A DNA stretch of 64,000 bases, taken from an uncultured bacterium. GTDB taxonomy: Bacteria > Patescibacteriota > Patescibacteriia > Patescibacteriales > UBA12465. Below, piece after piece: positions 3,988 to 27,405 of this stretch (the first letter of the stretch is position 1; each line of letters begins with the position of its first letter). The notes below the pieces were generated by a model. The model did not search any database. It was given only the letters and a program-made list of their open reading frames with translations, and was not told where the DNA came from. A program made the translations under genes and the position numbers. Where the stretch lies: positions 150,554 through 214,553 of the forward strand of contig CALKWQ010000023.1 in NCBI GenBank assembly GCA_938003925.1, in the 5' to 3' direction.

Positions 3988-6995
<3,008 letters not shown>

Positions 6996-7056
6996 TCCCA
7001 CGCTTTTGTTTTTCAAGCAAAAATACTTCGAAAATATATAAAAAGACGCCATTGTT

Positions 7057-7170
7057 CTGGTGGTTAAAGCGGAGGGGTCACACCTGATCCCTTCCCGAAC
7101 TCAGCAGTTAAGCCCTCCAGCGCCGATGATACTTGGGCCTGAGCCCTGGGAAAGTAGGTCGCCGCCAGAA
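7057..7170 (+). rRNA. rrf: 5S ribosomal RNA
   Basis: The terminal helix pairs tctggtggt with gccgccaga. Internally it has CCTGATCCCTTCCCGAACTCAG…GCCGATGATACTTGGG…GGGAAAGTAGGTCGCCGCC, typical of bacterial 5S. It lies 60 nt downstream of the 23S. Confidence 0.9.
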
Positions 7171-14131: not shown

Positions 14132-15667
14132 TTATCTGGCGTATTCTATAACCCTTGTTTCTCTAATAACGTTAATTTTAATCTCTCCTGGATATTTTAG
14201 CTCACTTTCTATCTTTTTAGCAATATCTCTAGCCAAATTATGAGCTTTCAGGTCGTCCACTGCCTCCGGTTTAACGAAGACGCGTACTTCGCGACCGGCT
14301 TGGATGGCGTAAGCTTTTTCAATGCCTTCGAAGGTGGTGGCAATCTTTTCTAATTCTTCTAAACGCTGAATATAATTTTCGTGGCTATCACTACGCGCGC
14401 CTGGTCTGGCCGAGGAGATGGCATCAGCCACCTTGACTATGACGGAGGTAAGGGTGGCGGGCTGGTCATCATGATGAGTGGCAATGGGAGCGATAATTTC
14501 TTCGGGGAGGTTAAATTTCTTGGCAATATCGCGACCAATTTCCGTGTGATTACCTTGCACCTCGTGATCAACTGCCTTTCCAATGTCATGTAGTAATCCA
14601 CCTTTTTTAGCTAAAGTCACGTCTGAGCCTAATTCCTCGGCTAACATGGCCGCTAGGTGAGCTACTTCGATGGAGTGACTGAGTGTATTCTGTCCGTAGC
14701 TGGTGCGATATTTAAGGCGGCCAAGTATTTGCACTAATTTAGGGTCGAAACCAGTAATGCCGACTTCGTACATCGCTTCTTCGCCGGCTTTTTTAATATC
14801 TACCGCCAATTCTTTTTTAGCCATTTCTACAGCATCTTCAATCTTGGTGGGGTGGATCCGGCCGTCTTTAATTAAATAGTCCAAGGTTTTTTTGGCGATA
14901 TGGCGACGGATGAGAGAGAAGCCAGACACGGTAATAGCATTGGGGGTGTCGTCAACAATAATTTCAACGCCGGTCATCTGTTCAATAGCCTTGATATTTC
15001 TACCCTCACGTCCGATAATACGCCCCTTCATTTCATCGTTTGGCAGATCAATAGTGGTGGTGGTTAGTTCTACGGTATAAGATGATACCATTCGCTGCAT
15101 GGCTAAAGCCATGATGTCTTTAGCTTTTTCTTGCAGTTTGTCGCTGGAATCATCTTCTAATTTTTTAATTCTGACAATTAAATCTTCAGCTGCCTTTTCT
15201 TCCACGCTCTTAAGTAGCAAGTTTTTTGCATCCTCTTGATTCAATTTGGCGACTTCTTCCAATTTAGCTAATTGCTCTTCTTTAATAGCTTTAATTCTTT
15301 CCTTAATTTCTTGAACTTCATTAACTTTATCGTATAATTTCTGTTGTTTGTCTTGTAAGTCTAGTAATTTTTGAGAAAAAGAATTTTCTCTTTGCTCTAA
15401 TCTGCTCTGTAGACCATTAATCTCTTTGCGGCGCTGGCTCTCTTCCTGTTTAGCCTCTTCTATAATTTTAAGAGCCTTGTCTTGAGCTTTAAGTAATAGA
15501 TCTTTTTCCTTGCTCTTGGCTTCGTTTAACAGCTTTTCCGCTTTGTTTTGAGCGTTATCCATCTGCCGGCTGGATTTTCTTTGGTAAAACCAAATACCAA
15601 TAAAAAAACCACCCACGACAGCAATAGCGGCAATTACGTATTCCATAAAAGTAAAGACCGAAAGCAA
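14132..15667 (-). CDS. rny: Ribonuclease Y
   Basis: It has an N-terminal TM helix and a long coiled-coil. A KH domain (GRIIGREGRNIK) and an HD domain (LLHDIGKAVDHE…H…D) follow. Its 511 aa fit RNase Y. Confidence 0.9.
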   Translation of the reverse strand: MLSVFTFMEYVIAAIAVVGGFFIGIWFYQRKSSRQMDNAQNKAEKLLNEAKSKEKDLLLKAQDKALKIIEEAKQEESQRRKEINGLQSRLEQRENSFSQKLLDLQDKQQKLYDKVNEVQEIKERIKAIKEEQLAKLEEVAKLNQEDAKNLLLKSVEEKAAEDLIVRIKKLEDDSSDKLQEKAKDIMALAMQRMVSSYTVELTTTTIDLPNDEMKGRIIGREGRNIKAIEQMTGVEIIVDDTPNAITVSGFSLIRRHIAKKTLDYLIKDGRIHPTKIEDAVEMAKKELAVDIKKAGEEAMYEVGITGFDPKLVQILGRLKYRTSYGQNTLSHSIEVAHLAAMLAEELGSDVTLAKKGGLLHDIGKAVDHEVQGNHTEIGRDIAKKFNLPEEIIAPIATHHDDQPATLTSVIVKVADAISSARPGARSDSHENYIQRLEELEKIATTFEGIEKAYAIQAGREVRVFVKPEAVDDLKAHNLARDIAKKIESELKYPGEIKINVIRETRVIEYAR

Positions 15668-21580: not shown

Positions 21581-23836
21581 TTAGAAGCGAGGGCGGCGCG
21601 GACCGTTGTCGCGTCGCTGAAAACCACCAGGAGCAGGGCGGCGGAAACCACCGCCAGCACTTTCTCCATTGGATTTGCCCTTTTCTCCCTGCCACAGAGC
21701 TTCATTTTCTGGCAAATTCTTCATAGTCAGGTTAATGCGACCCTGATCATCTATTTCCCGAATTTTGACGGTGACAATGTCGCCGATTTGTAAGAAGTCG
21801 CTAGGTTTTTCAATGCGGTAGGGAGCTAGTTCGCTGACGTGAGCCATGCCGTCTTGACTATTGTTAAGTTGAATAAAAGCACCGAAATCTAGGAGGCGTA
21901 CCACTTTACCCTTAATAATCTCACCAACCGCAAATACATGGACAATTTCTTTGACTTTGTTGACAGCTTCATCAACTTTTTCTTTATCGGTGCCGCAGAC
22001 CATTACTAATCCGTCATCATCGATATCGATGCTGACGCCAGTTTCGTCAATAATCTTATTAATCACCTTGCCGCCCGGTCCAATGATAGCGCCAATCTTC
22101 TCAGGGTCAACGTGAAAACTAATGATTCTGGGAGCATAAGGCGATAGGTCGGCGCGCGGAGCGGGGATGGAAGCAGTAATAACGCCTAATATTTTGTTTA
22201 AAGCTTCTCGACCCTGTTTAAAGGTTCGGCTAATGATTTCTGGGGTTAAGCCTTCGGTCTTGGTATCTAATTGAATGGCAGTTAAGCCATCGGCAGTGCC
22301 AGTGATTTTGAAGTCCATGCCACCGTTACCGTCTTCTAAGTCTTGAATATCAGTTAAGACCTGCCACTTGCTTAGGTTATCATATGAAGCTAAGCCCATA
22401 GCGATGCCTACTACTGGTTTTTTAATTGGTACACCGGCATCCATAAGGGCGAGAGTAGAAGCGCAAGTTGAGGCCATCGAGGAAGAACCGTTAGAACCGA
22501 GAGTTTCGCTAACTACTCTGATAGCATAAGGGAAGTCTTCTTTATTAGGAATCATGGGTAGGAGTGCTTTTTCAGCTAGAGCGCCGTGACCAATTTCGCG
22601 ACGTCCAGTTCCACGCAGAGGCGCAGCCTCACCTACACTGAAAGGTGGAAAATTATAGTGGTGCATGTAGCGTTTCTTGCTTTGTCCCTCCATCCCTTCC
22701 AATGATTGCTCCAAGCCAGGAGCGCCTAAAGTCACAATAGACAAGACTTGTGTTTCGCCGCGAGAGAATAGGGAGGTTCCGTGGTCGCGGGGTAAAAGGG
22801 CTACCTCAGCGTTTAAGGCTCGAATTTCATCAAGGCCACGACCATCAACCCGGCGACCTTCTTCTAAGATGGCTCTAGTAACTTCCTCATCTACGGCCTT
22901 TTCTACCAAAGTCTTGATAGCATAATTACGTTTATCGGCGCTGATATTTTGAGCAAATAGATAAGCGTCAAGTTGTTCCTTGATAGCCGCAATAGCTGCT
23001 TTACGCTCTCCTTTGGTGTAGTACTCTTTATTAAATAAAATACTCTTAACATTATCTTTTAACCAAGTAGATCCCAGAGCCAGTATTTCTTTTTTATCAT
23101 TTTCGCTCTTTAATTCTTCTTCGTTTTTTAGGGCCTTCTTGCTAGAAGCAGTCTTAGGTTCAATTTGTCGTTGTAGTTCTTCGATTAAATCGATAGCCGG
23201 CTGCATTTTTTCTTGTCCGGCTAAGATTGCCTCCAGCATAATCTCTTCCGTCACTTCGTTGGCGCCAGCTTCAATCATGATGGTTTTATTTTTAGTGCCA
23301 GCCACAATCAAATCTAAACTACTAATTGCCTGTTCGGCATAGGTGGGATTAAAGACTAATTTATCTTCTACCCGACCAACGCGGATGCCGCCAATCGGTC
23401 CCCGCCATTCAATGCCGGAAATAGCCAAAGCGGCTGAGGCCGCCACTAAAGAGACTACGTCGTGGTCATTTTCTTGATCAACCGCCAGAACGGTGGTGAT
23501 AACTTGTACATCACGGCGATCATCTTGATTAAATAGGGGGCGAATAGAGCGATCAATCATGCGGCCAGTTAAGACGGAGTCATCAGTCGGACGACCTTCG
23601 CGTTTAATCCAGCGAGAACCTTTGATAATACCAGCGGCGTAAAGCTTTTCCTGAAATTCAACCATTAAAGGAAAGAAATCCGTGCCTTCTCGGGCGGTTT
23701 TATTTTGGACGACCGTAGCCATAACTACAGTTTCTCCATATTGTACCAAAACAGCGGCATCGGCCTGTAGGGCCATTTTGCCGGTTTTAATTTGAAGCTG
23801 ACGACCAAGCCAGTCGGTGCTGACAATCTTTTCCAT
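21581..23836 (-). CDS. pnp: Polynucleotide phosphorylase
   Basis: It has two RNase PH domains, then KH (GPGGKVINKI) and S1 domains. It ends in an RGG-rich tail (GGGFRRPAPGGFQRRDNGPRRPRF). Its 751 aa fit PNPase. Confidence 0.95.
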   Translation of the reverse strand: MEKIVSTDWLGRQLQIKTGKMALQADAAVLVQYGETVVMATVVQNKTAREGTDFFPLMVEFQEKLYAAGIIKGSRWIKREGRPTDDSVLTGRMIDRSIRPLFNQDDRRDVQVITTVLAVDQENDHDVVSLVAASAALAISGIEWRGPIGGIRVGRVEDKLVFNPTYAEQAISSLDLIVAGTKNKTIMIEAGANEVTEEIMLEAILAGQEKMQPAIDLIEELQRQIEPKTASSKKALKNEEELKSENDKKEILALGSTWLKDNVKSILFNKEYYTKGERKAAIAAIKEQLDAYLFAQNISADKRNYAIKTLVEKAVDEEVTRAILEEGRRVDGRGLDEIRALNAEVALLPRDHGTSLFSRGETQVLSIVTLGAPGLEQSLEGMEGQSKKRYMHHYNFPPFSVGEAAPLRGTGRREIGHGALAEKALLPMIPNKEDFPYAIRVVSETLGSNGSSSMASTCASTLALMDAGVPIKKPVVGIAMGLASYDNLSKWQVLTDIQDLEDGNGGMDFKITGTADGLTAIQLDTKTEGLTPEIISRTFKQGREALNKILGVITASIPAPRADLSPYAPRIISFHVDPEKIGAIIGPGGKVINKIIDETGVSIDIDDDGLVMVCGTDKEKVDEAVNKVKEIVHVFAVGEIIKGKVVRLLDFGAFIQLNNSQDGMAHVSELAPYRIEKPSDFLQIGDIVTVKIREIDDQGRINLTMKNLPENEALWQGEKGKSNGESAGGGFRRPAPGGFQRRDNGPRRPRF

Positions 23837-23970
23837 AATTTTTTGTGGTCTTGGCCTTTAAATTACAGGACTGTATCGCTTTCCGTGGCTTAACGGCATA
23901 TCCGTTAAGGGGGAATAACTACAGTACTATCTATTTAAAGGTCAAGATATTATTAATTAGTTATTATATT

Positions 23971-24471
23971 TTAACGTCCGATCAAAAATTTACGATCACC
24001 GCTTAAGTCGGTAAAATCGTCTACTTCTTCAATCAGGCGAGAAGAACAAGTTTTACGAAAGGCCATTACTTCCACCAAACAACCTTTGTTGTTTTGTAGG
24101 TAAGAGACCAGAGGCAGGTAATCACCATCTCCGGAAACCAGCACAATAACATCCAGTTTGTCAGCTAATTTGATGGCATCAATAGCAATACCAACATCCC
24201 AGTCAGCCTTTTTAGCGCCACCTGCAAAAATCTGCAGATCTTTCATGCGCACCTCAAAACCCTGCTGACTGAGCGCTTCAAAAAAGGCTGTTTCCTCGTC
24301 ATTTTCTGCCCGGATAACATAAGCAGTGGCCCGGATTAATTTCCGGTCGGCCACTGCTTTAGTCAATATTTCTTTAAAGTTAACGCGTCTACCGTAAAGG
24401 TTTTTAGCAGAGTGGTACATGTTAGCGACATCTATCAAGACGCCGACGCGCTGTTCTTTGTGTTTAATCAT
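23971..24471 (-). CDS. NYN-domain (LabA/PIN-like) putative ribonuclease
   Basis: It has VGVLIDVANMY…VLVSGDGDYLPLV, with the acidic residues characteristic of NYN/LabA nucleases. The gene lies between rpsO and pnp. Confidence 0.65.
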   Translation of the reverse strand: MIKHKEQRVGVLIDVANMYHSAKNLYGRRVNFKEILTKAVADRKLIRATAYVIRAENDEETAFFEALSQQGFEVRMKDLQIFAGGAKKADWDVGIAIDAIKLADKLDVIVLVSGDGDYLPLVSYLQNNKGCLVEVMAFRKTCSSRLIEEVDDFTDLSGDRKFLIGR

Positions 24472-24477
24472 AGGTAT

Positions 24478-24861
24478 TTATTCGTTGTCTTCAGTTTCTT
24501 CAGGGATAATTTCAGCAACCTCCTCATCCTCACTGGCAACGCTGTATTTCTTCTCCTTTAATTTTTCTTCTTCTTCCTCAGCCTGTAATTTCTGGGCTAT
24601 TTTAAGTTTCAACTTTTCAGCTAGTTCTTTAAATTGTTCGGCGTTCTCTTTCTGTAAATATTTTAACAATTTGCGACGTTCGCCGACTTTCTTTAATAAG
24701 CCTCGGCGAGAAGAGTAGTCATGTTTGTGCTGTTTGAGATGATCGGTTAATTGCTTAATTTCTTCAGTTAAAATAGCAATCTGTACCTGAGGTGAACCGG
24801 TATCAGTGTCGTGGACACGAAACTTTTTGATGATTTTCTCTTTACTTTTTTTGTCTAACAT
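24478..24861 (-). CDS. rpsO: 30S ribosomal protein S15 with an acidic C-terminal extension. The start is taken at MLDKKSKEK.
   Basis: It has [48 protein letters not shown], a clear S15 signature. An additional tail of about 40 aa rich in Glu and Asp follows. Confidence 0.85.
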
Positions 24862-24932
24862 AGTGATAGCGCTTTTTCCGAGCAAGGGGGTTTGCACCCG
24901 TTGCCCAGAAGAAGTGATTAATTATAAAACGC

Positions 24933-25193
24933 TTATTTCAGCGCATTGATTTTTTTAGCTAAACGTGATTTTTTGCGAGCAGCTGCGCCTTTCTTAATGA
25001 CGCCTTTCTTGGCGGCTTTATCAACCGCCTTCATTACTTGAGACAGGTCTTCTTTTACGCTCTTATCAGCAACTGCTACTTTTTTCAAACTCTTTTTAAC
25101 TGCGGTTTTCATGACGTTTTTTACTTTGAGGTTAGCCACTTCTCTTTTAATGCTTTTGCGCAGTTCTTTTTTGGCCGATTTCTTATTAGGCAT
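24933..25193 (-). CDS. rpsT: 30S ribosomal protein S20
   Basis: The product is an 86-aa basic helical protein starting MPNKKSAKKELRKSIKR, which is the S20 pattern. Confidence 0.8.
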   Translation of the reverse strand: MPNKKSAKKELRKSIKREVANLKVKNVMKTAVKKSLKKVAVADKSVKEDLSQVMKAVDKAAKKGVIKKGAAARKKSRLAKKINALK

Positions 25194-25321
25194 ACTAAAT
25201 TTTGATAAATTAGGTAAATTATTAAAAGTATTCTTATGTTAGCACAAAACTAAACAAAAATCAAGACTTAAATTACACTAGTTTTGAGGTGATATTATTA
25301 TAAAAAATTTGTTTTTAGTCT

Positions 25322-26209
25322 TTACAATTTAATGATTTTTTGGCCAGTGGCAAGTAATCTTTTTGCGTCCACGGTATATAGTACTGGTGCTAAATTTTTT
25401 ACTAATAATTCTTCTTTTTTTACTTCTCCTCTCTCTTTTTCTTGTCGCCAGATTTCATTATAGCGATAAAAAAGATGGTTTTTCTTCAAGAAATAATGAT
25501 TTTTCTCTATCAGTTTAAAGCGTTTTGTGGATTTTTCTTTTGCCAAAACCAGTCCCTTTAGGTGTTTATCGCTCAGCCACAACTTTAGCTGCAGGTCTTG
25601 TTGGCTGATATTTTTAATTTGTAAATCAATAAAATTATAGAGCACGGTAGCACCGCTGCCGAAAGGCAAGCTGCGTCCCGAGTCAGGAAAAACATCTAAG
25701 GAGTGGTGATATCGTTCTTTGATCTCGGTGTCGCAATGCATTAAAATCCAGAACAAGAAATTAGACAGTTGGCATAATCCTCCCCCGATTCCTTCGGTTA
25801 CTCTGCCGTCAGCCAGCAGCATGCCGTTCACGTAGCCTTTGCGCCTGCTCGGTTGACCAATACTGTGCCAGTAGGAAAATGTTTGCCCGGCGGGGATGAT
25901 TAGTTTGTCCAGTTTTTTAATGGCTTGTTGGAGATTTACTGTCTTTGCTTCTTGTAGACGCGGGTCGCTATTGCCTAGTTGACGCCGTAGCACGCTCTGA
26001 TGACGCGCCAAAATATAGGGGTAATAGTCTTTTGCGCGTTTGTTTTTTATCTGTGGAGTGCTGATGTTTTGATAATGCTTGGCAATCCTTCGGATTTTAA
26101 TAATCGGTTCTTTAAAAAAAGGAAAACGCGCCGATAAGGCGCGTCGGCTCGGATGTTCAATTTTTTCAATTTCTATCAGTAGTTGCTGATGCAGAGCGGC
26201 GGGAATCAT
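25322..26209 (-). CDS. VanW-family protein
   Basis: The GGGLCQLSN motif and surrounding region (…TFSYWHSIGQP…) resemble the VanW domain. The gene is 295 aa. Confidence 0.55.
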   Translation of the reverse strand: MIPAALHQQLLIEIEKIEHPSRRALSARFPFFKEPIIKIRRIAKHYQNISTPQIKNKRAKDYYPYILARHQSVLRRQLGNSDPRLQEAKTVNLQQAIKKLDKLIIPAGQTFSYWHSIGQPSRRKGYVNGMLLADGRVTEGIGGGLCQLSNFLFWILMHCDTEIKERYHHSLDVFPDSGRSLPFGSGATVLYNFIDLQIKNISQQDLQLKLWLSDKHLKGLVLAKEKSTKRFKLIEKNHYFLKKNHLFYRYNEIWRQEKERGEVKKEELLVKNLAPVLYTVDAKRLLATGQKIIKL

Positions 26210-26331: not shown

Positions 26332-27024
26332 TTAATTTTCGAACTTTTTCTTTAGAAAGTCAATCCAACCTATTAAACGAAAAAAAAGGTTGACGTTATT
26401 AATTCTAATATGAATGGTTCCGTGTGGCAATTTGTTAATAGTTTTTTTCCGGCTAGCTTTGCTTATTACATGGCTAACTTTACAAAAATTATTGCTATCA
26501 AGCTTAGTTATCTTCTTCCAGAAGGCAATACTCTTTTTGTCCTGGCTCTCACTGTTGTTATGTAACATTAGCTGCGCGGTTATGTCTGATTTTGTAATTG
26601 GCAAGAATCGTAAAAAGAATTTCATCATTATTCTAATCATTTCTGGATCGGAATTTGCGAAGTCTATGCTTTTCCACTTACTGCCTTGCGCACCCTTTTT
26701 ATATCCTTCCCCCCAGTATAATGCTAGTCCAGTAATGAATAGCGGATCTGATAAAAATCTAATAGCTTCTTTAGAGGCTTTAGCTCTATTTTTTTCATGT
26801 TTATTCTGTATTAATTTACTTCTATCCTTATTGCGTTTTATTAATTTCTTTATTTTTATCGCCTGAATATGTTGGTGAATCTTCGCGCTTGCTTTTTTAT
26901 CAAGATTTAAGTTTTTTAACCAAGAGCTGAGAGTGCTTTTAGAAACGCCGAGTTTCAAGCCTATCTGGCTGTAGGTTAATCCGTTTCTCCTTAATTTTAT
27001 TGCTAACGCTTTATCGCTTCTCAT
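26332..27024 (-). CDS. Hypothetical HTH-domain protein. It has an N-terminal resolvase/Hin-like HTH and a C-terminal domain of unknown function that may be degenerate endonuclease-like.
   Basis: The N-terminus LTYSQIGLKLGVSKSTLSSWLKN is a classic HTH. The middle segment FITGLALYWGEGYKKG loosely resembles a LAGLIDADG-type motif. The gene is embedded between tRNA genes on the same strand. Confidence 0.4.
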   Translation of the reverse strand: MRSDKALAIKLRRNGLTYSQIGLKLGVSKSTLSSWLKNLNLDKKASAKIHQHIQAIKIKKLIKRNKDRSKLIQNKHEKNRAKASKEAIRFLSDPLFITGLALYWGEGYKKGAQGSKWKSIDFANSDPEMIRIMMKFFLRFLPITKSDITAQLMLHNNSESQDKKSIAFWKKITKLDSNNFCKVSHVISKASRKKTINKLPHGTIHIRINNVNLFFRLIGWIDFLKKKFEN

Positions 27025-27084: not shown

Positions 27085-27405
27085 TGCCCCGGGTCAGAAT
27101 CGAACTGACGACACAAGGATTTTCCTTTTTCTGAGCCTAAGTTTCCCTAGGGATTGGACTATATCATCTCCGTTTTATTAAAAATAATAAAGGGCGGAGT
27201 TGGGCGCTCGCGGCGGGGTTATTGTTGGGCTCACCCGCTAGTCTCTACACCTTCTTCAATTTGAAACCCAATTGAAGCTTGGCTCGGAATTACCATTACG
27301 TCTTCACGCTTTAGGCTTCTCCGAATTCACCCAATTTTCATTCCAGCGTTTCCGCTGGACGGACCGAAAATCCAGTCCTTTGCTCTACCACTGAGCTACC
27401 GAGGC
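27085..27405 (-). tRNA. tRNA-Phe (anticodon GAA) interrupted by a 249-nt group I intron. Exon 1 is 27374..27405 and exon 2 is 27085..27124.
   Basis: Exon 1 is GCCTCGGTAGCTCAGTGGTAGAGCAAAGGACT. Exon 2 is GAAAATCCTTGTGTCGTCAGTTCGATTCTGACCCGGGGCA. Joined, they give a canonical class I tRNA with anticodon loop CUGAAAA. Confidence 0.8.
27125..27373 (-). ncRNA. Group I self-splicing intron in the tRNA-Phe anticodon loop with no internal ORF
   Basis: The intron begins GGAUUUUCGGUCC. Its GGUCC pairs with exon GGACU to form P1 with a U•G wobble at the 5' splice site. Its GGAUUUUC is complementary to the first 8 nt of the 3' exon, forming P10. P2 is CCAGCG-GAAA-CGCUGG. An R-like GUAGAGACUA and an S-like GAUAUAGUCC form the P7 GACUA/UAGUC pairing. 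The intron ends in G. Confidence 0.75.

Follow-up and report, generated by a model that had tools for sequence, protein, structure and literature searches.

A NYN-domain gene kept between rpsO and pnp in Patescibacteria and a structured RNA in the pnp leader

In Escherichia coli and Streptomyces (S. coelicolor), a hairpin lies in the intergenic region between rpsO, the gene of ribosomal protein S15, and pnp, the gene of polynucleotide phosphorylase (PNPase), and it is known as an RNase III processing site that is needed for PNPase autoregulation (PMC5872136). Here we describe this locus in a stretch of 64,000 nucleotides (nts) from an uncultured bacterium of the Patescibacteriota (contig CALKWQ010000023.1, positions 150,554 to 214,553; hereafter the window), where a gene of the NYN family separates rpsO from pnp and a conserved stem-loop precedes pnp. 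Patescibacteria, also named the candidate phyla radiation (CPR), form a large share of bacterial diversity and have tiny genomes, and to our knowledge almost nothing is known about their RNA metabolism.

Among the NYN enzymes of bacteria, Rae1/YacP of Bacillus subtilis is a ribosome-dependent endoribonuclease and is a precedent for a NYN enzyme that acts with the ribosome. The group to which the gene in the window is assigned, NYN.COG1432 or LabA-like, is listed with function unknown in the classification of the PIN superfamily (PMC5499597), and the RNase activity of LabA was still deduced from the domain alone in 2024 (PMC11127020). For the NYN domain of MARF1, a published account describes endoribonuclease activity as demonstrated (PMC6294520).

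Conserved gene order and the NYN protein

The original prediction for this DNA had placed a NYN-domain open reading frame (ORF) of 166 amino acids (aa) between rpsO and pnp on the same strand, and this arrangement was recovered: the ORF matched Pfam PF01936 (NYN) with 121.7 bits against a cut-off of 24.2 (E = 4.7e-35), and the flanking genes were identified as those of S15 and PNPase by Pfam and NCBIfam. Close relatives of the NYN protein number in the thousands, and those with an organism name are almost all from Patescibacteria (Falkowbacteria and others); relatives are already labelled 'NYN domain-containing protein' by NCBI. The gene order was compared in a first set of 80 loci, one genome per species, in which NYN is 65-98% identical to the window protein. 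The record titles of these loci name Falkowbacteria, Buchananbacteria, Moraniibacteriota, Parcubacteria and 'Patescibacteria group', and many read 'uncultured Gammaproteobacteria', which is presumed to be a placeholder. The NYN gene is stable among these relatives, with S15 encoded directly upstream on the same strand in 77 of the 80 loci and PNPase encoded downstream of it in 75. PNPase is missing from five loci, of which four have a contig end 40-350 nt past NYN and the fifth is locus L081.

L081 (1176-4909), on a short contig, is the only one of the 80 loci that has room downstream yet no pnp. Downstream of its NYN gene, AT-rich non-coding sequence extends for at least 0.6 kb and contains two copies of a repeat unit of approximately 190 nt, and no ORF of at least 60 aa is present in the remaining 3.7 kb. 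Either an error of assembly or a true rearrangement could account for this layout.

In the distant loci of the same set, the outer neighbours rpsT and rpsP are lost and the S15-NYN-PNPase triad is kept. The triad was also found in all three loci of a Paceibacteria NYN subclade (Pacebacteria, Nomurabacteria; 55% identity), where the neighbours are otherwise entirely different. When a third NYN subclade, from JGI metagenomes, was counted together with these three Paceibacteria loci, S15 was present in 70 of the 72 loci with upstream room and PNPase in 58 of the 58 with downstream room. Among the nearest relatives outside Patescibacteria (Margulisbacteria, Armatimonadota and others; 40-46% identity), none of four was near rpsO or pnp. 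In addition, one database protein (P0188) is a read-through fusion of NYN and PNPase. The median identity to the window proteins, determined in 70 loci, was 79% for NYN, 77% for S15 and 68% for PNPase, and the value for NYN exceeded that for PNPase in all 70 loci and that for S15 in 47 of them. Across a large part of Patescibacteria, the S15-NYN-PNPase order is old and fixed, and it is ancestral there. Because the same order is held lineage-wide, the NYN gene is no insertion peculiar to this genome, and the earlier description of it as inserted had to be given up.

The PF01936 match covers residues 8-156 of the NYN protein, corresponding to profile positions 1-144 of 145. The only solved relative found by sequence is VPA0982 of Vibrio parahaemolyticus (structure 2QIP; phmmer E = 3.5e-25, residues 4-159). 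The AlphaFold2 model of the protein (predicted local distance difference test, pLDDT, 87.1; predicted template modelling score, pTM, 0.86) has the PIN-like alpha/beta/alpha fold of this reference structure, and 2qip was also the top Foldseek match (E = 2.4e-17, template modelling score, TM, 0.89/0.91, 32% identity), followed by the NYN endoribonuclease domains of human and mouse MARF1 (6fdl/5yaa, TM 0.62-0.75). The catalytic acidic residues were inspected in an alignment of 231 sequences, composed of the orthologues of the 80 genomes and 150 representatives of 50%-identity clusters, and were found to be conserved at 93-100%: D14 in 99%, D92 in 100%, D98 in 97%, D115 in 100%, D117 in 98% and D90 in 93% (otherwise Asn), with N17 of the same site in 99%. 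The protein is a genuine NYN/PIN-like nuclease-fold protein, in which the predicted metal-binding acidic residues are all present and conserved, and its fold and residues point to a single-domain metal-dependent endoribonuclease. The NYN hypothetical equivalog TIGR00288 was not reached (25.2 bits against a cut-off of 178.45). The Pfam scan at E <= 0.01 gave no PF05991 (NYN_YacP) match, which places the protein outside the Rae1/YacP family.

A conserved active site bears on the question of whether the protein is an active housekeeping nuclease at all. For cyanobacterial LabA, the evidence is purely genetic and describes a regulator of clock output (PMC5499597, PMC11127020), and the window protein might likewise be a non-catalytic RNA-binding or regulatory LabA-like protein; or it might be a selfish or defensive PIN-like toxin that landed here by chance, for which a partial match to the PADLOC 'NYN' defence model could be counted (41 bits, residues 58-156 against positions 198-295 of 310). 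However, the conservation of the catalytic residues speaks against the non-catalytic form and the synteny fixed across at least three deep subclades against a selfish one, no partner antitoxin ORF, mobile-element gene or NYN paralogue is present in the window, and the PADLOC match is at the level of the domain only, in a housekeeping neighbourhood. We consider it very improbable that the protein belongs to any of these kinds. Two narrower candidates were rejected: a VapC-type PIN toxin, because only PF01936 matches (not PF01850) and a small partner ORF is missing next to the gene, which has rpsO and pnp as neighbours, and an anti-phage defence NYN protein, because the PADLOC match is partial and there is no defence-gene neighbourhood.

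Inspection of the orthologues revealed two further features of the family. Most Patescibacteria orthologues outside the clade of the window (P0122-P0190, 50-65% identity) carry long, low-complexity basic tails rich in Lys, Ser, Pro and Thr, which are 50-250 residues long and C- or N-terminal; the window protein is a bare domain. Such Lys/Ser/Pro-rich tails are as expected for non-specific RNA binding. In the homologue P0222 (cluster members P0393 and P0394), Trp occurs where Gly is invariant elsewhere (…KKWDWDLW…, …TWDSDF…), as expected if UGA that stands for Gly (code 25, Gracilibacteria/Absconditabacteria) was read as Trp. This pattern suggests that the NYN family is also present in recoded lineages.

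The pnp leader RNA and the coupling of the three genes

The 6-nt gap between rpsO and NYN was as predicted, and the gap between NYN and pnp is 134 nt (23837-23970), one less than the 135 nt given before. This spacer folds into one long irregular stem-loop with a free energy (dG) of -38.1 kcal/mol and a z of -8.27, and 0 of 200 shuffles were as stable. The basal stem, CUUG.ACCUUUAAAU / AUUUAAAGG.CAAG, is followed by an AG/A internal loop and then by the core, AUAG-N-ACUGUA ... UACAGU-N-CUGU, with a trio of wobble, A:U and G:C pairs, and the apical extension is variable. The consensus of the leader is YUGACCGUUAAAU-AG-AUAG-N-ACUGUA...UACAGU-Y-CUGU-A-AUUUAACGGCCAR. The distance from the end of the stem to the pnp ATG is 12 nt in the window and 6-13 nt in most related loci. 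The hairpin cttaacgg/ccgttaag, which the original prediction suggested as a possible pnp leader stem, does belong to the leader, but it is only the non-conserved tip of the 99-nt stem-loop. It is a lineage-specific apical extension, in place of which most relatives have a short variable loop, and in the closest contigs (L002/L003) the tip stem is altered on both sides, CTTAATGG...CCATTGAG.

When 40 loci were aligned with MAFFT (alignment A1) and a consensus structure was derived by RNAalifold, 23 pairs were obtained, of which 17 had compensatory changes. The proportion of paired cells in A1 was 95.3%, against 32-43% when the partners were slid by 1-3 columns, and the covariation score was 0.421, against at most 0.107; 0 of 500 shuffles attained any of the observed measures. 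A covariance model (R1) built from this 40-locus seed matched the sense strand of 66 of the 80 loci exactly once each, and every match fell between NYN and pnp. Loci that had not contributed to the seed account for 26 of these matches, and two matches are weak, with E = 0.014 and 0.11. R1 matched the sense strand of the 64-kb window once (23834-23949, 72 bits, E = 1.3e-14), and its antisense scores were far lower, in line with the G.U pairs of the structure. Searching the whole window with Rfam 15 at gathering scores gave no match to the leader RNA, and searching 23700-25400 at E <= 10 gave nothing but a chance match of a small nucleolar RNA (snoRNA) inside rpsO; known Rfam families, including S15 leaders, were accordingly rejected as its identity. 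The pnp leader is a well-supported structured RNA that is absent from Rfam.

In other subclades, the stem-loop is alike in shape and position and different in sequence (...GAGAU-NUCGAG-loop-CUCGAN-AUCUU...), and 32 sequences of this version gave 17 pairs, 13 of them compensatory. Both versions share the wobble (G.U or U.G) - A:U - G:C trio beside the internal loop, and R1 weakly detected five leaders of the second locus set, which covers the other subclades, just upstream of pnp. Common descent of the two versions is likely, to judge from these sequences.

Other identities of the hairpin were considered and rejected. For the TTGACC at its 5′ base, a -35 promoter box was not accepted as the principal reading because this sequence covaries with the 3′ strand (TTGACC/GGCCAA, CTGACC/GGCCAG, TTGGTC/GACCAA, CTGCCC/GGCCAGG), and the promoter scan gave no minus-strand site at this position. 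An intrinsic terminator was rejected because the tract after the hairpin is A-rich, not U-rich. Sequestration of a Shine-Dalgarno sequence by the basal stem was considered for the AGGA/GGGA in the 3′ strand of the second subclade, and was set aside because the spacing is variable and ABY1-type leaders are without it.

The leader also raises the possibility that NYN is a regulator of its own operon, which would cut the pnp leader, or the rpsO-NYN-pnp transcript elsewhere, and thereby set the S15:NYN:PNPase ratio and PNPase autoregulation. A structured leader is found directly downstream of the NYN stop in most loci, its core is kept in sequence as well as in structure, suggesting a specific protein partner, and eukaryotic NYN-like enzymes recognise stem-loops. 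On the other hand, the motif stays with pnp and not with NYN in long spacers (0.5-1.1 kb; L031, L042, L043, L046), 13 of 68 loci in the second set have a NYN gene ending 1-32 nt ahead of pnp and no leader hairpin, and a protein constrained like a ribosomal protein is unlikely to serve one transcript. Moreover, the window itself carries a gene for RNase III, the enzyme responsible for this step in E. coli and Streptomyces (PMC5872136). Because RNase III is encoded here and processes the equivalent hairpin in those bacteria, the leader is most simply read as an RNase III site. A NYN enzyme specific to this operon is therefore improbable in our estimate, and the dedicated autoregulation of the operon suggested by the original prediction is not favoured, considering the RNase III gene and the 13 loci that keep NYN without the hairpin.

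Many NYN proteins of the hairpin-less loci have an acidic C-terminal extension with a conserved ...FFxxL...EESRTRRLEF end. In the loci with the EESRTRRLEF tail (L114, L116, L140, L145, L149-L151, L159), the NYN stop lies 1-14 nt before pnp. Through this tail, NYN may dock on PNPase or another partner. The retention of NYN in loci without the hairpin speaks against leader cutting as its sole role and gives a hint of direct coupling to PNPase. In the strongest form of this idea, NYN would be an essential, lineage-defining endoribonuclease that docks on PNPase, for example via EESRTRRLEF, makes with it a minimal degradosome of an endonuclease and a 3′-exonuclease, and recognises the leader core instead of RNase III; we regard this form as unlikely. 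An extra, very stable GC-rich hairpin without a U-tract was seen directly after NYN in the second-subclade loci L104, L107-L111, L128, L129, L133-L139 and L157-L164, which could be a 3′-end protective structure of the rpsO-NYN message or an atypical terminator.

The median of the S15-NYN gap across the 80 loci was 9 nt, and the NYN start contexts in the clade of the window are AT-rich and without a Shine-Dalgarno sequence. From the short gap without a Shine-Dalgarno sequence, we infer co-transcription and possibly coupled translation of NYN with S15, and the 6-nt layout in the window suggests coupling by termination and reinitiation. No terminator-like hairpin was found after NYN in the window, so that pnp is probably read through from the rpsO-NYN transcript, and NYN is almost certainly co-expressed with rpsO and pnp. 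The terminator and promoter scan of the minus strand between NYN and the stem-loop (23948-23970) gave no call, by which a promoter is neither shown nor excluded. In related loci, terminator-like hairpins after NYN were found in 9 of 78 and 2 of 48 distinct spacers, located between NYN and the leader.

These spacings are relevant to the main rival explanation, a ribosome-linked nuclease, according to which NYN would be made stoichiometrically with S15 and act on the precursor of the small-subunit ribosomal RNA (rRNA) or on ribosome-bound RNA, and PNPase would trim the products. Maturation of the 16S ends, removal of rRNA insertions common in the lineage and cleavage of mRNA at the A-site, as by Rae1/YacP, are possible roles of this kind. 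The short gaps to rpsO fit such a role, as do the conservation equal to that of a ribosomal protein, the many orthologues with basic Lys/Ser/Pro-rich tails, like those of ribosomal and RNA-chaperone proteins, and the classical ribosome-biogenesis region in which the genes lie, with rpsT, rpsP, a KhpA-like KH gene, trmD, rbfA and infB in the outer neighbourhood. Bacterial NYN genes have also been tied to tRNA and rRNA processing by gene-neighbourhood work (PMC5499597). However, the tight coupling to S15 is not general, because S15 and NYN are 50-160 nt apart in Paceibacteria and the third subclade, and NYN can abut pnp there. In addition, no rRNA or other stable-RNA gene is adjacent to NYN, and PF05991 (YacP) is not matched. 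We consider a ribosome-linked nuclease possible, with a low probability.

Features of the locus and of the window

The features of the locus and the other RNase genes are listed in Table 1. The start of rpsO is the ATG called by gene callers in identical contigs, and the ORF from an upstream GTG reaches 24897. The C-terminus of S15 (24478-24600, minus strand) has an extra Glu-rich tail of approximately 40 residues outside the 81-position Pfam S15 domain, and tblastn matches of S15 to the more distant loci mostly end ahead of this tail. PNPase has two RNase PH domains (RNase_PH), a KH domain (KH_1) and an S1 domain according to Pfam.

Table 1. Coordinates of the rpsO-NYN-pnp locus and of other RNase genes in the window
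Feature	Position	Strand	Basis or remark
rpsO, ribosomal protein S15, 127 aa	24478-24861	minus	Pfam Ribosomal_S15 E 3.9e-32; TIGR00952 117 bits
Spacer, rpsO stop to NYN start, 6 nt	24472-24477	minus	sequence; without Shine-Dalgarno
NYN gene, 166 aa, predicted Mg2+-dependent endoribonuclease (LabA-like, NYN.COG1432 group)	23971-24471	minus	PF01936
AT-rich spacer, NYN stop to leader stem-loop	23948-23970	minus	no terminator here
pnp 5′-leader stem-loop, 99 nt, conserved	23849-23947	minus	fold, covariation, covariance model
Apical tip hairpin CUUAACGG-AUAUG-CCGUUAAG	23889-23909	minus	fold
A-rich single-stranded linker ACCACAAAAAAUU, leader to pnp ATG, without Shine-Dalgarno	23837-23848	minus	sequence, fold
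pnp, polynucleotide phosphorylase, 751 aa	21581-23836	minus	NCBIfam equivalog NF008805, 853 bits
RNase Y	14132-15667	minus	RNase_Y_N, KH, HD domains
RNase III	1795-2517	plus	Ribonuclease_3 E 8.4e-40; dsrm E 1.1e-15

The RNase III gene, of canonical type, follows nusB and lies approximately 1.5 kb upstream of the 23S rRNA gene. Because the window encodes both RNase III and RNase Y, the notion that NYN replaces a missing RNase III or a missing decay-initiating endonuclease was rejected, and NYN is an extra enzyme. The 23S rRNA gene (3009 nt against a model of 2925 positions) and the 5S rRNA gene are adjacent (3992-7170, plus strand), and no 16S rRNA gene was found in the whole 64 kb; perhaps the rRNA genes are not linked.

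A tRNA-Phe(GAA) gene on the minus strand (27085-27405) has its anticodon loop interrupted by a 249-nt group I intron (Rfam RF00028, 79 bits). Its exons are 27405-27374 and 27124-27085 and the intron is 27373-27125; ARAGORN missed this tRNA in the genomic sequence and called it on the joined exons. The same tRNA-tRNA-intron arrangement was found in the related locus L031 (4778-5037). Downstream of the intron-bearing tRNA-Phe and upstream of tRNA-Pro, the window has a 230-aa ORF (26332-27024, minus strand) with an N-terminal HTH_23 domain, which may be a homing-endonuclease-like or mobile gene tied to the intron. In L031, only approximately 100 nt separate the intron from the next tRNA, leaving no room for a 230-aa ORF.

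Proposed role and comparison with described systems

The explanation towards which we lean, by a modest degree, is that NYN is a catalytically active endoribonuclease with a housekeeping function, expressed together with S15 and cooperating with PNPase, and that the leader controls pnp in the manner of E. coli, probably via RNase III. NYN would be made from the rpsO transcript, probably by coupled translation, with its level tied to that of S15, and would cut RNA internally, in mRNA and/or precursors of stable RNA. PNPase, as a 3′-5′ exonuclease, would then clear the 3′-ended fragments left by these cuts. By analogy with E. coli and Streptomyces, pnp would most likely be processed and autoregulated at the stem-loop, where the RNase III of the genome itself would probably make the cut, and NYN would be dispensable for that step. 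We infer the partnership with PNPase, the substrates of NYN and the identity of the leader-cutting enzyme; a general role of NYN in RNA processing and decay together with PNPase is the best interpretation that these data offer.

Several points weigh against this explanation. From conserved gene order, a functional or physical partnership can be argued only indirectly, and all loci were retrieved with NYN as bait, so that the counts are silent on rpsO-pnp loci of Patescibacteria that have no NYN. In the clade of the window, NYN has a tighter coupling to rpsO than to pnp, and the terminator-like hairpins after NYN, present in 11 of 126 intergenic regions, fit a ribosome-related role at least as well. 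With RNase Y and RNase III already encoded, there is no obvious missing activity for NYN to fill. Finally, the nuclease activity is assigned from the fold and the residues, because no bacterial member of the NYN.COG1432/LabA group has been characterised biochemically (PMC5499597, PMC11127020).

Literature searches on NYN with rpsO/pnp, with Patescibacteria or with CPR, which had most subscription journals outside their coverage, gave nothing relevant, and neither the fixed S15-NYN-PNPase operon, nor the exceptional constraint on NYN, nor the conserved pnp-leader RNA was found described in the literature searched. Being kept between rpsO and pnp across deep branches and constrained like a ribosomal protein, NYN is a strong candidate for a lineage-specific core RNA-processing enzyme. 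Bacterial NYN proteins of the LabA-like family number in the thousands, and the operon offers a concrete, testable context for them, in which PNPase is a candidate partner and the candidate substrates are the leader RNA and precursors of rRNA. If docking on PNPase and recognition of the leader were true, the large bacterial LabA/COG1432 NYN family would thereby gain its first biochemical role, and the leader would be a new class of cis-regulatory RNA.

Comparison of the protein with described members of the superfamily indicates both the likeness and the distance. VPA0982 (2QIP) is of the same family and fold, has the DxxN...DWD...D...GDGD motifs and is of similar size (165 aa), but it is a structural-genomics protein of unknown function, whereas NYN of Patescibacteria is a tightly conserved subfamily of its own in a fixed rpsO/pnp context. 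LabA/LalA of Synechococcus elongatus, regulators of circadian output, belong to the same Pfam family and to the COG1432 group by published classification (PMC5499597), and both are presumed RNases from the NYN domain (PMC11127020); LabA, however, is known through clock-output phenotypes only, and a linkage to rpsO-pnp is not reported for it. The NYN domain of MARF1 (6FDL, 5YAA), the next-best structural match, shares only 14-16% identity and is part of a large protein with RRM and LOTUS RNA-binding domains, in contrast to the bare domain in the window. Rae1/YacP (PF05991) is likewise a small bacterial nuclease of the NYN superfamily found among translation and rRNA-maturation genes, and differs in its Pfam family.

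The leader RNA is best compared with the rpsO-pnp hairpin of E. coli and Streptomyces coelicolor, with which it shares the position before the pnp start, the long irregular stem-loop and the presence of RNase III in the genome. It differs in that NYN lies between rpsO and the hairpin, in that its core is conserved in sequence across many species, with the wobble-A:U-G:C trio, and in that the spacer is usually without a terminator or a recognisable promoter and no Rfam model covers it. Judged by this analogy, the leader of Patescibacteria most likely works like the RNase III/PNPase autoregulatory hairpin of E. coli, and would thus extend the paradigm of pnp leader control known from E. coli and Streptomyces to a very distant lineage.

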